From a bacterium (lineage in GTDB: Bacteria > Acidobacteriota > Blastocatellia > HR10): 64,000 bases of DNA. Made by a program: the position numbers and the translations under genes. Below, in pieces: positions 6,703 through 27,898 of the stretch. The stretch's first letter is position 1. Each line of letters starts with the position of its first letter. The stretch spans positions 146,909 to 210,908 of the forward strand of contig JBEPZV010000002.1 in assembly GCA_041640655.1 (NCBI GenBank). The letters are read 5' to 3'. The notes below the pieces were generated by a model. The model saw only the letters and a list, made by a program, of their open reading frames with translations. It searched no databases and was not told where the DNA came from.

Positions 6703-7994
6703 ACGTCCCCCTCGCGCTCCGCCACCAAGGCGCGGATGGCGTCATTCACAGCCTCCGGGAAGCAGAGCCGATCAATATGGAATCGGCGCAACCGGCGGAT
6801 GGCCGGAGAGACTTCGGTGATCTCGCGCAGCGTGCGGCTTCCTCCGTCCACCTCGACGTAGATGCGACTCTCCGGACCCGATGTCTCCGGAGAATAGGGG
6901 CCGAGATAGGGGATGTCGCTCGCGCGATCTTCGATCAGGTAATAGCGCGGGTCGAAACCCGCCGCTTCGACGATCTGGCGCGCGCGCTCGATGAGTTGGC
7001 GCCGGCGCTCGGCATTGACCTGCAGGTCCACGGCTTTGAAGAGGCGGCGATGGAGGAACCCACTGGCCAGATCGCGCAGGATCGGATCCGGGGCCTTCGT
7101 CCACCACTTGATGTGGAACATGACATCGTGATCGTCAAGGGCCAGATATTCCTCGGTCGAGAGCGGTTCGCGCCGCAATACCTTCACCATCACGGAATCG
7201 GGGACGACGAGTGACAACTGCCCGCTCGCCATGAGATCAATCGCGCGACGGAAGATGGAGCGGAGCATCACCTCGGCCGTCCGCAAGTTGCGATGGAAGT
7301 AGACCTGGCGGAACATGTAGTAACGCGCCTGCAGGTACTCCTCGACGGCGTAAAGCCCTTTGGCCGCGACGTAGAGGCATTCCTCATCGGGAGCGATCTC
7401 CAACGTGTGCAGGATCCACTCCAGATCGTAGAAGCCGTATTTGGCGCCGGTCATCAAGCTGTCGCGCAGGAGATAATCGAAGCGGTCCACGTCCATCTGG
7501 CTGGAGATGAGCTGCGAGATGAATCGCGGCCGATAGGCGTGCTGCAAGACGGCGACGACTCGCGTCGGGAGATCGCGATCCCTCTGGACGAGGATCCGAT
7601 GGACCGTCGTCTCCTCATCGAGAATGATGCGCGCTCCCCACGCTTCGTGCCGATACCCGAGAACGGCCTCCACGACGTGAGAGAATGGCCCGTGCCCGAT
7701 GTCGTGAAGCAGCGCGGCGCAGGTGGCCGTCAGGCGCGTCTCGCGAGCGATCGGGTACCGTCGCCCCAAATGGGCGAGGACGCGCCGCATCAGATGCATC
7801 ACGCCGAGCGAATGCGAGAAGCGGCTGTGTTCGGCTCCCTGATAGGTGAAGAGCGCCAAGCCCAATTGCTTGATCCGGCGCAGGCGCTGGAACTCGGGGG
7901 TATCAATCAACCGGATGAGCACCCGATCATCCGGGTCGGCTTCGTCAAGCGAGATGATGTTGTGCACCGGATCGCGATAGATGCGCTCGGCCAT
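6699..7994 (-). CDS. HD-domain phosphohydrolase (dNTPase-like, YwfO type)
   Basis: [45 protein letters not shown]. Confidence 0.9.
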
Positions 7995-17249: not shown

Positions 17250-17325
17250 TGGTGAGCCGTGCAGGAATCGAACCTGCGACCCTCGGGTTAAAAGCCCGAT
17301 GCTCTACCGACTGAGCTAACGGCCC
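17250..17325 (-). tRNA. tRNA-Lys (TTT)
   Basis: Reverse complement GGGCCGTTAGCTCAGTCGGTAGAGCATCGGGCTTTTAACCCGAGGGTCGCAGGTTCGATTCCTGCACGGCTCACCA: 76-nt cloverleaf, TTT anticodon, encoded CCA. Confidence 0.97.
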
Positions 17326-24961: not shown

Positions 24962-25453
24962 TTATCGCCGTCCAAAGGTGAAGACGATGCCGACTGAGAG
25001 TCGCGCGTTATTTTGCGTCTCGCCGCCGAAGCGTGTGAAGAGATAGTCGGCCTGCAGCAGTCGAAGCGTGAAGCGCTCATTCAATGGCACATCCACACCG
25101 CCGCCAAAGACCATCCCGAAGGCGGAGAGCGCTCCGCCATCCCCCAACCGCGCTCCGCCGAACAGAAAATGCGTGAAGGCCGTGACCGTATTGCGCGCGG
25201 CGAATCGAGGCCCCACCGTGTACGCATGGAGGGAGAGGCCCGACCGATAATGACCGCTCACATCGGCGGCAATCCCCAACCAGGAATTCACGTTCCCCAC
25301 AATCGAGACATTCCATCCGTGGGAATTGATGGCGTCCGCCAGCCGAGCGTACGAATAGCCAGCGAAGACCTCAACACGAGGGACCTCCTGAGCACCCCCC
25401 TGCTTCACTCCGCACAGGATGAGGCCGAGAACGATACCCAACCTTCTCCGCAT
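24962..25453 (-). CDS. Outer-membrane beta-barrel protein (about 8 strands)
   Basis: Signal peptide, EVFAGYSY, GGGVD, RLSVGIVF; SD GAGGAGG before ATG 25453. Confidence 0.75.
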   Translation of the reverse strand: MRRRLGIVLGLILCGVKQGGAQEVPRVEVFAGYSYARLADAINSHGWNVSIVGNVNSWLGIAADVSGHYRSGLSLHAYTVGPRFAARNTVTAFTHFLFGGARLGDGGALSAFGMVFGGGVDVPLNERFTLRLLQADYLFTRFGGETQNNARLSVGIVFTFGRR

Positions 25454-25470
25454 GTCTCCCCTCCTCGCCT

Positions 25471-26193
25471 CTATCGAAGGGTCCCCTCGCCCATCATCAG
25501 GCGCCATTCGCTCGATGAGACGGCGCCGCGGAGGGCGCCGTCGGCTGCGCCAACGCCTTTTGGTGAGAGGCTCTCGCCTGACCGACTGCACGCTCGAACG
25601 TCCGCGTCCACGCTGCGAGATGTCGCCGCAGCCTCCGCGTCACGGCGCGCGTAAAAACTCAAGACATTCTCCCCCTGTCGAAGCTGCCGCACGCGCTCGA
25701 ACTCACCGTAATGCGTTGCTAAGGCGCGCTTGGCATGATGCATGACGATGAGTATGCCCTCTGGCGCAAGCACCGAGGGCGTGCGCGCCAGACGCTCCAA
25801 CACGGCCTCGTAGAGCTCCGAGGCATACGGGGGATCGAAGAAGATCACGTCAAACGCCTCCCCCCGTCTCCCAAGCTGCTCCAAGGCGCGAGCCGCATCT
25901 TGCTGGAGGATCTCGATGCCCTCGCGAATCCCACAGGCGGCGAGATTTTGCCGAAGCTGTGCGATGACGATCCGCGAGCGCTCAACGAAGGTGACATGTC
26001 GAGCCCCACGGCTGAGCGCTTCAATCCCCACGGCTCCCGTTCCAGCACAGAGATCCAGAACGCGCGCCCCGATCAATCGCGGTCGCAAGACGTTGAAGAG
26101 CGCTTCCTTCAAACGATCGGGAATCGGACGGACCGCTCGCCCCGAGAGCCCCTTCAACCGCCGCCCCCTGTATATCCCCGCGATCACACGCAC
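25471..26193 (-). CDS. rsmD: 16S rRNA m2G966 methyltransferase RsmD
   Basis: MRVIAG..RGRRL, LDLCAGTG, EALSRGA, FFDPPY. Confidence 0.93.
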   Translation of the reverse strand: MRVIAGIYRGRRLKGLSGRAVRPIPDRLKEALFNVLRPRLIGARVLDLCAGTGAVGIEALSRGARHVTFVERSRIVIAQLRQNLAACGIREGIEILQQDAARALEQLGRRGEAFDVIFFDPPYASELYEAVLERLARTPSVLAPEGILIVMHHAKRALATHYGEFERVRQLRQGENVLSFYARRDAEAAATSRSVDADVRACSRSGESLSPKGVGAADGALRGAVSSSEWRLMMGEGTLR

Positions 26194-26242
26194 GGAATCA
26201 TCTTAATCGTGTCGCCCCGGAGGAGGCAATCAGCGATTGGTG

Positions 26243-26287
26243 AAAAAGAAAACCCCACCTCCCTCCGCAGGAGGGACCGGTGGGGAT
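26243..26287 (-). terminator. Rho-independent terminator of the micropeptide unit
   Basis: Minus strand CCCCACC-ggt-CCCTCC-tgc-GGAGGG-a-GGTGGGG followed by TTTTCTTTTT. Confidence 0.8.
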
Positions 26288-26318
26288 TCGGAATACAGAA
26301 GGCTCCTCCAGCTGCTCG

Positions 26319-26426
26319 CTACGGCCCCGAGGACACGCCAAGCAGCAGGAACACAAAGAGGAACAGCACCAAAAAGATCACAAGCACCAACAGGGTCGTC
26401 GTATCCATCTGACCTCTCTCGCGCAT
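26319..26426 (-). CDS. 35-aa hydrophobic micropeptide B with class III signal-like N-terminus: MRERGQMDTTTLLVLVIFLVLFLFVFLLLGVSSGP
   Basis: Hand translation; SD GGGAGGAG before ATG 26426; TAG at 26321-26319; paralog of the upstream peptide. Confidence 0.8.
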   Translation of the reverse strand: MRERGQMDTTTLLVLVIFLVLFLFVFLLLGVSSGP

Positions 26427-26513
26427 CGTCTACTCCTCCCAATAAGATGAGGCCGATACATCCCCTGCGTCTCGCTAGCGCGATGCCACAGGGGATCTCT
26501 GCTCAGAAGGCGC

Positions 26514-26624
26514 TTAGCCTCCGCCGCCGCCTCCTCCAAGCAGCAGGAACAGGAACAGGAACAAGATCACAAACGCCATCACGAGCACGAGCGTGAGCGT
26601 ATCGAGTTGTCCTCTTTCGCGCAT
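26514..26624 (-). CDS. 36-aa hydrophobic micropeptide A with class III signal-like N-terminus: MRERGQLDTLTLVLVMAFVILFLFLFLLLGGGGGGG
   Basis: Hand translation; SD AAAGGAGAGG before ATG 26624; TAA at 26516-26514. Confidence 0.8.
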   Translation of the reverse strand: MRERGQLDTLTLVLVMAFVILFLFLFLLLGGGGGGG

Positions 26625-26666
26625 ATCGCCTCTCCTTTGCAAGATCGAGATTCAACATCGGTCCGG

Positions 26667-26695
26667 AGTATACAGAGAGTCCCTGGCATTGTCAA
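26667..26695 (-). promoter_or_regulatory. Near-consensus sigma-70 promoter of the micropeptide unit
   Basis: TTGACA (26695-26690) - 17 nt - TATACT (26672-26667). Confidence 0.8.
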
Positions 26696-26783
26696 GGAAA
26701 AAATCGTATGCGCTTTTTCTCGTCGGAGAAGATGGGGCAGCTCGTGGGCTCCCACACGACCTTTGGGGCTCCACCGCAATGGT

Positions 26784-26792
26784 TGCTATAAT
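26784..26792 (+). promoter_or_regulatory. Extended -10 element for rlmN
   Basis: TGcTATAAT ending 8 nt before the GTG start at 26801. Confidence 0.55.
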
Positions 26793-26800
26793 GCGGTGAT

Positions 26801-27898
26801 GTGAGGGAGACGCTTCTTGGACGAACGCGAGGCGAGCTGAAAGAGCTCCTCAAGGCGCGCGATCCGAAGCCGTACCGGGCGCACCAGCTCTTCGAGGCGC
26901 TCTATCGGCGGCGCATCACGGAGCTGCAGGCGGCGACTGATCTGCCCGCATCGCTTCGGGCGGCGCTCAGCGAGGCATTCGTCATCACCGACGTCGAGAT
27001 CGCCGACGTCTTTCGCGCGAGCGATGGGACGCGACGCTACGTGCTGCGCCTGCGGGATGGGGTGCTCGTCGAGTCGGTGTGGCTTCCCGAACCCTATGCC
27101 GATACGATCTGCCTCTCGACGCAGGCTGGCTGCCCCTTGGCCTGTGCCTTCTGCATGACGGCTCGGCTGGGCTTGAGGCGAAATCTGGAAGCTGGAGAGA
27201 TCGTGGCTCAAGTGTGGCTCATCCTCAACGACATCTACGGTCCGGGGGTGAGGCCGGAGCGGGGTGTCAATCTCGTCCTCATGGGGATGGGCGAGCCGCT
27301 CCTGAATTACGAGAACGTTTTGAAAGCGATCCGACTCTTCTGCGAACCTCGAGGGATGAACATCTCCCAACGGCGGATCACCCTCTCGACGGCGGGCGTC
27401 GTCCCGGGGATTCGGCGCCTCGCGCACGAACCCATCCGCCCGGAACTGGCCATCTCGCTCTCGGCCACGACGAACGCGCTGCGCGATCGGCTCATGCCGA
27501 TCAATCGGCGATGGCCGCTCGAAGAGCTCCAGGCCGCATGTCGCGAGTATCCGCTCCGACGGAACGAATGGATCTCCTTCGAATACGTGATGCTCGACGA
27601 CGTCAACGATCGTGAGGAGGATGCCCGGCGGCTCGTTCGCTGGCTCCGCGGGATTCGCGCGAAGGTGAATCTGATCCCGCACAATCCGGCTCCCGAGCTG
27701 CCCTTCGCCGCCTCGCCAGAGGAGCGCATACTGCGGTTCCAACACATCCTGCGCGCTGCCGGGATCCCGACATTCATCCGTCACCCTCGAGGCCGCGAGA
27801 TCGCCGCCGCGTGTGGACAGCTCGCCGCCCGGCGACGAGAGGACCTCATGATGCTTCTCGCGTCGTCGCCCCCTCGCGATGTCGCAGCTCGCGAATGA
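26801..27898 (+). CDS. rlmN: Dual-specificity RNA methyltransferase RlmN (radical SAM)
   Basis: CLSTQAGCPLACAFC, MGMGEP, NLIPHN, AACGQL. Confidence 0.95.
   Translation: MRETLLGRTRGELKELLKARDPKPYRAHQLFEALYRRRITELQAATDLPASLRAALSEAFVITDVEIADVFRASDGTRRYVLRLRDGVLVESVWLPEPYADTICLSTQAGCPLACAFCMTARLGLRRNLEAGEIVAQVWLILNDIYGPGVRPERGVNLVLMGMGEPLLNYENVLKAIRLFCEPRGMNISQRRITLSTAGVVPGIRRLAHEPIRPELAISLSATTNALRDRLMPINRRWPLEELQAACREYPLRRNEWISFEYVMLDDVNDREEDARRLVRWLRGIRAKVNLIPHNPAPELPFAASPEERILRFQHILRAAGIPTFIRHPRGREIAAACGQLAARRREDLMMLLASSPPRDVAARE

Follow-up and report, generated by a model that had tools for sequence, protein, structure and literature searches.

The window analysed here is a 64,000-nucleotide stretch of contig JBEPZV010000002.1 from the genome of an acidobacterium of the class Blastocatellia (3.13 Mb in 128 contigs, 89.8% complete, 63.7% GC). 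On its minus strand, at 26695..26243, lies a compact cassette that consists of a promoter, two ribosome-binding sites (RBSs), two paralogous open reading frames (ORFs), a hairpin between them and an intrinsic terminator. These features suggest an autonomous operon of two genes under a strong promoter, which would encode paralogous single-pass inner-membrane micropeptides. The pair is restricted to one genus, is well supported and belongs to no known family. What appears to be new is that the N-terminus of the peptides equals the leader of the major type IVa pilin of the genus itself, so that processing by the prepilin peptidase PilD becomes a testable hypothesis. In the following, G000 denotes the source genome, G001 to G006 the other genomes of the genus, G007 the sister genus, and G009, G041 and G049 further genomes of the class.

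Organization and transcription of the cassette

The promoter, which is close to the sigma-70 consensus, consists of the -35 hexamer TTGACA (26690..26695, minus strand), which follows a T-rich tract at about 26696..26706, and the -10 hexamer TATACT (26667..26672, minus strand), separated by a spacer of 17 nucleotides (nt). In a promoter scan of 25900..27100, the sole promoter-like site was this one (26695..26667, minus strand, 11 of 12 matches), and shuffled sequences gave a mean of 0.2. A perfect -35 hexamer combined with a -10 hexamer with at most one mismatch is found at only 54 sites in the 3.13-Mb genome; as read from the sequence downstream of them, several of these promoters appear to precede tRNA genes, an L21-like gene and a GroES-like gene. 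Transcription is predicted from the promoter to start near 26660.

ORF1 (pep1; 26514..26624, minus strand) encodes 36 amino acids (aa) followed by a stop codon and, occurring in 7 of 7 genomes of the genus, is the best-conserved copy. Its peptide has a charged N-terminus with Gly5/Gln6 and Asp8 and continues with a helix of ~22 residues, rich in Leu and Phe, and a Gly-rich tail. The purine-rich RBS of ORF1, AAGGAGAGG (26629..26637, minus strand), is conserved in the genus and is not strongly sequestered in the predicted centroid fold. Downstream of ORF1, sequence, alignment and fold all indicate a conserved GC-rich hairpin (26462..26494, minus strand) that has no T-run in the window; in G001, G003 and the metagenome locus L141 a T-run follows, which turns it into a terminator. 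ORF2 (pep2; 26319..26426, minus strand; 35 aa plus stop) is preceded by its own RBS, GGGAGGAG (26433..26440, minus strand), and encodes a paralogue in which the first six residues are the same as in ORF1 and are followed by Met7 and Asp8. The intrinsic terminator (26243..26285, minus strand), also visible in the fold, is the single terminator-like site that a scan of 25900..27100 returned; the scan gave a core stem at 26272..26253, which by eye extends to a long GC stem at 26285..26253 and is followed by a T-run at 26252..26243.

Most of this architecture had been proposed in a sequence-only reading of the locus, and that part has held up well. The promoter TTGACA-17-TATACT is recovered by the scan and lies on the minus strand, which the reading had left unstated; both ORFs with their Shine-Dalgarno (SD) sequences and lengths of 36 and 35 aa are present, with translations exactly as quoted; and the terminator after the second ORF was found as well, with the longer stem seen by eye. 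The claim of a strong promoter agrees with a site that is near-consensus and conserved across the genus, in front of a cassette that is covered by a contig from an RNA library.

This contig, of 443 nt, comes from the metatranscriptome run X20 and spans 26206..26627, i.e. both ORFs, the hairpin and the terminator, at ~96% identity, and therefore derives from a close relative. A second RNA-library contig, which comes from a relative that is more distant, covers the region of ORF1 and extends into rsmD. Such contigs speak for presence only; strand, ends and level cannot be read from them, and neither absent cover nor depth is usable. In run X20, the rsmD contig is separate from the 443-nt peptide contig, and no contig lies on 26638..27100 on the rlmN side, a gap that is not usable as evidence. 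The layout of the contigs is compatible with a transcript that would start near the predicted promoter and end ahead of rsmD. The fold of the transcript is more structured than that of shuffled sequences (z = -3.66). Rfam has nothing at the locus, its only match in the window at the gathering score being a tRNA at 17253..17325.

The cassette is flanked by two genes on different strands: rlmN (26801..27898; PF04055 and PF21016) lies upstream on the opposite strand, and rsmD (25471..26193, minus strand; PF03602) lies directly downstream on the same strand, with its start 50 nt past the terminator. The rsmD ORF has 240 aa, of which PF03602 spans only residues 1-181, and its tail overlaps a 209-aa ORF at 24962..25591 (minus strand) that has no Pfam family and contains a signal-peptide-like stretch. 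The ORF list of the window holds 52 ORFs, plus two further ORFs; among the 22 proteins scanned between 11 and 43 kb, the Pfam-matched neighbours are all of the housekeeping type (PrmA, chaperonin, MutL, AspRS, HisRS, Mur ligase, ComEA-like, ComM-like, RpoD, Hsp20 and MiaA).

Distribution of the cassette and selection on the peptides

The source genome contains just these two copies of the peptide gene. The cassette occurs in 6 of the 6 other genomes of the genus and in six metagenome loci, which were reached with the promoter as a DNA pattern and all of which contain both ORFs. In each of these it lies between rlmN and rsmD. The order of promoter, ORF1 and hairpin is constant in every cassette. 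ORF2 is more variable: it resembles that of the window in G002 and G005, is diverged in G001 and G003, leaderless in G004 and absent in G006.

In a search at E<=1, 20 of 61 relatives (G000 counted) had some match, and all matches better than 1e-4 lie within the genus. A profile made from the alignment of 13 copies (A1) matched 9 of 301 genomes of the class at E<=0.01, namely the seven genus genomes and two marginal partial matches; the single sister-genus genome G007 had no match to the peptides at this threshold. Against 1.84 billion protein representatives, the same profile found five proteins at E<=0.001, four of which are true members of 32-41 aa. The fifth (P0003), a 334-aa repeat protein in which 11 residues were matched repeatedly, is not a member. 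When the first eight codons were searched for as a degenerate DNA pattern in species-representative genomes, 21 loci came up. Sixteen of them lie in unrelated frames; the other five are true cassettes, and the titles of their assemblies are Bacterium HR10, Bacterium HR08, uncultured Blastocatellia, Acidobacteriota JZ-3 and, in one case, Clostridia. The Clostridia title (record L057) is probably a misnomer for an acidobacterial assembly, since the record and G006 have identical ORF1 sequences. Automatic gene calling has caught some copies: the protein collection has four of them, and ORF1 is found without a difference in the ESM Atlas; the best scores in the Atlas, 0.78-0.79, fall on unnamed clusters, which are leads only and were not used. 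The rlmN neighbourhood of G007, G009, G010 and G011 has no small hydrophobic ORF. With convincing matches nowhere else, the cassette is confined to one genus of hot-spring Acidobacteria. Outside this genus, G009, which belongs to the same order, encodes a peptide whose basic leader ends in Gly and which has Asp at +3 (positions are counted from the proposed cut after Gly5). This peptide may be distantly related; at E = 0.35 and without synteny it was not counted, and its leader is unlike that of the G009 PilA.

Purifying selection at the protein level acts on both ORFs. In the 12 leader-bearing copies, variable sites at codon positions 1/2/3 number 2/0/7 in codons 1-8 and 21/7/19 in codons 9-29. 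The former pattern means that the amino-acid identity of the N-terminus is preserved, and the retention of the second codon position (T, hydrophobic) in codons 9-29 means that the hydrophobicity of the helix is preserved as well. Changes in tail length are all in frame. Protein-level selection had been proposed from synonymous codon differences between the two ORFs, which lie at codons 3, 5 and 6; these differences are confirmed, and the codon-position counts bear out the selection. The near-invariant N-terminus consists of Met, RERG, Gln, one variable residue and an acidic residue, the last being Asp in 13 of 13 aligned copies and Glu in one metagenome ORF2. The metagenome ORF2 of one species has K for R at -2 and E for D at +3, which read as conservative changes that keep a basic residue at -2, Gly at -1, Gln at +1 and an acidic residue at +3. 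In G001 and G003, the helix of ORF2 is retained and most of its Phe residues are lost.

Where residues are identical between distant genus pairs, the same codon is kept at a fraction of 0.59-0.88 in ORF1 versus 0.39-0.62 in rsmD/rlmN. This high synonymous conservation would fit strong codon bias, for which high expression is a candidate cause, or an added constraint on the RNA. ORFs of this kind are rare in the genome: a scan for SD-preceded hydrophobic ORFs of 24-50 aa with a hydrophobicity cut of 0.6, slightly below which ORF1 fell, returned only four candidates, two of them being ORF2 and its internal start.

The N-terminal junction and the pilins of the genus

In the parts of the review by Berry and Pelicic (PMC4471445) drawn on here, the class III signal of prepilins is a hydrophilic leader of 6-26 residues that ends in Gly and is followed by 21 mainly hydrophobic residues with Glu at position 5 (Glu5). 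The same parts describe the Gly at -1 as critical for cleavage and Glu5 as dispensable for it yet needed for homopolymer assembly, and they mention that leaders can be shortened in some systems. In the peptides, Gly5 is found in 12 of 13 aligned copies, the thirteenth being the leaderless copy of G004, and in 12 of the 12 ORFs of the six metagenome loci; the Gly of the RG/Q junction is thus conserved among homologs, as the sequence-only reading would have it. Residues 6-29 are hydrophobic apart from Gln6, Asp8 and one to three Thr, in line with a hydrophobic stretch of ~21 residues.

The genus has class III proteins of its own with which this junction can be compared. The best of the three N_methyl proteins in the source genome is a PilA-like pilin of 164 aa (contig C21; 38.2 bits on PF07963), which is nearly invariant in the genus. 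The leaders are MNRERG in G000, MRERG in G001 and G003, MVRERG in G004 and MARERG in G006, in each case with F-S-L-I-E next; the deviating leaders are MNHERG (G002) and MNRQQG (G005), and the sister genus G007 has MKRRQQG. RERG is accordingly common to the peptides and the PilA leader in five of seven genomes; G001 and G003 go further, with all five first residues identical. Because Arg4 is encoded by CGA or CGG in pilA and by AGA or AGG in the peptide genes, i.e. by different codon families, the identity of the leaders is not due to a recent DNA copy. The source genome also encodes a true Flp (PF04964, 40.4 bits), followed by two TadE-like ORFs. The predicted junctions, as read from the sequences, are EKG/Q in Flp and RARG/Q and SERG/Q in the TadE-like proteins, so that the Gln after Gly in the peptides matches the residue after Gly in all three. 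G004 is the only genome of the genus without an Flp match at E<=0.01. With the leader identity shown, the N-terminus of the peptides appears to reproduce the class III junction of the genus by joining the PilA leader to the Gly/Gln of the Flp and TadE-like proteins.

Among 610 six-frame occurrences of RERG in the genome, five precede a hydrophobic 22-mer: two in the peptides, one in PilA, one in a Sec-like signal and one in a frame that lacks a start codon. We put the chance of such a leader match at roughly 1 in 1000, which is a rough estimate of our own and not the result of a test. The Sec-like case is an ORF on contig C3 (six-frame position 77151, plus strand) that begins M-L-RERG and continues into a Sec-like signal ending A-S-A/Q-Q.

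The sequence-only reading had called for a search of the genome for prepilin peptidases and Tad or type IV pilus machinery, and a PilD-type A24 peptidase, the PilA-like pilin, Flp and the TadE-like proteins were found. The A24 peptidase is the single one in the source genome (contig C83; L030 70..1308, plus strand; 413 aa counted from the conserved start) and is of the PilD type as it carries the PF06750 N-domain together with PF01478. There is one A24 locus per genome in 6 of the 6 genus genomes searched (the source genome and five others; G005 lay outside the search). The C83 peptidase is unusually long, with a stretch of ~130 residues, partly of low complexity and rich in Pro, Ala and Glu, that splits the two halves of PF01478; this insert is present yet variable in all six genus copies aligned. 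A complex prediction that paired the peptidase alignment with the peptide alignment gave no answer, with a score of 0.01 (mark 0.32) and without controls, and bears neither way.

The source genome has three T2SSE-type ATPase loci. From their order and sizes alone, ORFs on contig C39 can be read as a Tad-like row cpaB-cpaC-cpaE-cpaF-tadB-tadC. After the putative tadC, at ~7149..7289 (plus strand) of C39, lies a 46-aa ORF with a good RBS, an acidic leader ending in E-R-G and one hydrophobic helix; its strongly basic C-terminal end suggests a topology opposite to that of the window peptides. The loci L099-L102 (G006, G004, G001 and G003) encode a conserved protein of ~300 aa with a weak N_methyl match (15.9-18.6 bits, below the cut-off) and the junction [AE]RG/Y-A-L-L-A-L, without Glu5. 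It may be a GspK/PilX-like minor pilin, and if so the genus would have class III substrates that lack Glu5.

The cassette of G004 (L008 1501..1712) differs from the others in its ORF1, which starts with GTG and has lost the Gly tail. Beginning 35 nt after this ORF1 is a leaderless duplicate of it with its own RBS, in which the Gly tail and the conserved hairpin are retained and which starts one residue past the proposed cut. The duplicate may be read in two ways, as a mimic of the mature form or as a decaying copy.

Interpretation and comparison with known systems

Combining the layout of the locus with the conservation data and the comparison with the pilins of the genus, we suggest that the peptides are N-in membrane micropeptides that are cleaved by PilD after Gly5 and give rise to a ~30-aa headless pilin-stem helix acting within the membrane, a reading to which we assign a probability of about 0.4. 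As read from the alignment, positive charges lie at the N-terminal end and the tails are uncharged but for one Arg in the ORF2 of G001 and G003, so that an N-in topology is likely, which would put Gly5 at the cytoplasmic face where PilD cuts. In this scheme, (i) the charged N-terminus would be cytoplasmic and the uncharged Gly/Pro-rich tail outside, (ii) the single PilD-type A24 peptidase of the genome would recognise the peptides and cut them after Gly5, and (iii) the hydrophobic stem of ~30 aa would remain in the inner membrane, where it would mimic or compete with the pilin stem by occupying PilD or the assembly platform. Alternatively, the stem would signal to a membrane sensor, as the PilA stem of Caulobacter does. 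The leaderless copy of G004 would fit a leader that is removable. The wider proposition that the peptides are a new type of prepilin-peptidase substrate, in which gene-encoded headless stems of ~30 aa, trimmed by PilD, imitate the pool of unassembled pilin in the inner membrane and would in this way tune PilD, the type IV or Tad assembly platforms or a pilin-sensing kinase, is one that we regard as unlikely.

Cleavage by PilD has to be weighed against the alternative that the peptides stay whole, that their N-terminal motif is a functional element facing the cytoplasm, that they are accessory subunits or regulators of some membrane protein, in the manner of MgrB, AcrZ or MgtS, and that their likeness to pilins is due to chance or is a relic. 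Several observations speak against cleavage. The leader of five residues, all hydrophilic or neutral, is one residue below the 6-26 range given in the parts of PMC4471445 cited above. Position +5 is Leu, Thr, Val or Met and thus not Glu. Neither peptide matches PF04964 (Flp_Fap), PF07963 (N_methyl) or TadE at E<=10, and hhalign of the peptides against the Flp alignment of the genus (A3) gave a probability of 0.86% over 4 columns only. No pilus gene is among the 22 proteins scanned in the neighbourhood, between 11 and 43 kb. The PilA leader drifts in the genus (H for R in G002, RQQG in G005) while the N-terminus of the peptides stays fixed; there is thus no covariation, and the constraint goes beyond what a disposable leader needs. 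In the sister genus, a pattern for its own PilA leader matched only pilA and an unrelated ORF and revealed no mimic ORF. The C3 ORF, the sole other case in the source genome of an N-terminal RERG ahead of a hydrophobic stretch, means that a chance match is of small, not nil, probability. Finally, the purine-rich codons of RERG could be a relic of an RBS in front of Met7 of ORF2, and the motif could then stem from the lengthening, at its start, of a peptide that once had no leader. The strong, constitutive-looking promoter would in addition suit an abundant structural peptide. What the uncleaved form leaves unaccounted for is the four-residue identity with the organism's own pilin leader at the same spacing to the start and to the helix, joined to Gln at +1, and a G004 copy that is leaderless but otherwise intact is hard to fit with an essential N-terminal motif. 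Setting the likeness in leader and junction on one side and the drift of PilA, the missing linkage to pilus genes and the possible RBS relic on the other, we favor cleavage at the probability given above and regard uncleaved peptides as nearly as likely, also at less than even odds.

These same tests bear on how far the peptides can be called pilin-like. From the class III signal that had been seen in them, the Gly, the hydrophobic stretch and the likeness to the pilin leader of the genus stand, and Glu at +5 and a match to the N_methyl profile do not. The observation that they lack the Glu at +5 of Flp pilins is borne out by the alignment, and of the G/XXXXEY processing motif the Glu-Tyr at +5/+6 is absent. 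Membership of the Flp or type IV pilin families falls on the two pilin profiles, the hhalign result and the missing Glu. In Pfam, neither peptide is above the cut-off of any family; weak matches of ORF2 in Pfam (ATP-synt_8 at 15.1 bits, others far below the cut-offs) and in NCBIfam are hydrophobic noise.

Other kinds of function can be set against the same data. Known type I toxin loci such as Ldr, Ibs, Zor and AapA encode small toxins, many of which have a charged tail; their antitoxin is an antisense or overlapping RNA, and translation of the toxin mRNA is restrained. The size and hydrophobicity of our peptides, their tandem paralogues and the structured transcript recall such loci, and the pair could consist of membrane-damaging peptides kept in check by an antisense or overlapping RNA. 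With a near-consensus promoter, exposed strong RBSs and no sequestering 5' structure, such a toxin would be unrestrained; moreover, the scan of 25900..27100 gave no promoter-like site on the opposite strand, although scans miss non-consensus promoters, the tails are uncharged, and each genus genome has one locus at a fixed chromosomal position. We therefore hold a toxin role to be improbable. Still less probable is a role at the level of the RNA, with the ORFs serving as Leu/Phe-rich attenuator leader peptides before rsmD or being incidental to a small RNA. The position of rsmD on the same strand just past the terminator, the codon retention in ORF1 above that of the flanking genes and the RNA contig of a relative that runs into rsmD would suit it, but selection on the protein is evident from the codon-position pattern and from the conservative nature of the hydrophobic replacements, ORF2 of G001 and G003 keeps its helix and drops most of its Phe, the fold offers no alternative antiterminator structure, Rfam has no family at the locus, and an rRNA methyltransferase would be an odd target for Leu/Phe attenuation. 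We give least credence of all to a true minimal pilin, which the sequence-only reading had entertained and in which the cleaved peptides would polymerise as an extracellular fibre or join type IV or Tad pili. A class III-like junction and the statement in PMC4471445, in the parts cited, that pilins without Glu5 can co-assemble with wild-type subunits would allow it; however, the mature part of ~24 hydrophobic residues and 3-8 Gly/Pro/Ser/Ala has no exposed domain and nothing that would face water, which makes a fibre physically unlikely, the shortest prepilin named in those parts has 44 residues, and Glu5, homology to Flp and linkage to pilus genes are all missing.

If PilD cuts the peptides, prepilin peptidases would act on micropeptides that do not form filaments, a widening of their substrate range, and the peptides would be the smallest class III signal proteins known. 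They would then also represent a gene-encoded mimicry of the pilin-stem pool of the membrane, support for which has so far come only from engineered Caulobacter fragments (PMC7196804), and would be a natural counterpart of the synthetic CIP. Literature searches at the level of titles and abstracts gave no described micropeptide with a prepilin-type junction. The system offers a clean test case, with one peptidase per genome, a leader of five residues and an easily measured mass shift. If the peptides are uncut, they would still be a well-supported, genus-specific pair of membrane micropeptides with a near-consensus promoter, and an example of how short motifs shared with pilins can mislead.

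Among known systems, the closest in function to the PilD-cleaved stem proposed here would be CIP of Caulobacter crescentus PilA, a pilin leader with a bare hydrophobic stem that acts in the inner membrane. According to PMC7196804, the PilA leader plus 17 mature residues suffice to signal to the kinase PleC via the transmembrane helix, within the membrane, and the synthetic CIP peptide lowers pilus function. Unlike the peptides, CIP has no gene of its own, being an experimental piece of a full pilin gene, and it shows no sequence likeness to them. The analogy is one of function only, with no sensor partner known here. The DUF3309-like peptides of ~29 aa in G041 and G049, which belong to other families of the class, begin with six residues of ORF2 from Met7 onwards, followed by a hydrophobic helix and a Gly run; they score 17.9-18.4 bits on PF11752 against a cut-off of 22.3, and neither window peptide matches this family at E<=10. 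As leaderless ancestors of the pair they are unproven: E, at 0.03 per genome, is not significant, they are not syntenic, and their positive charges are C-terminal, which implies the opposite topology.

MgrB, AcrZ and MgtS are small inner-membrane regulators of less than 50 aa that consist of a single helix, are encoded by stand-alone genes and bind larger membrane proteins. They have no sequence relation to the peptides, and we know of no small protein of this type with a prepilin-type junction. The Flp/Fap and TadE-like proteins share with the peptides the Gly/Gln junction after E-[KR] and a very small size, mature Flp here having 39 aa versus ~30 for the peptides; in contrast to Flp, the peptides have neither E-Y at +5/+6 nor an amphipathic C-terminal part, and their leader has 5 residues instead of ~15. 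From the PilA-like pilin of the genus they are set apart by their five-residue leader, Gln rather than Phe at +1, the acidic residue at +3, a total length of 30-37 aa and the lack of a globular domain. What they have in common with it is a short hydrophilic leader with Gly at its end, joined directly to a stretch of more than 20 hydrophobic residues, and, in the five genomes named above, RERG itself.

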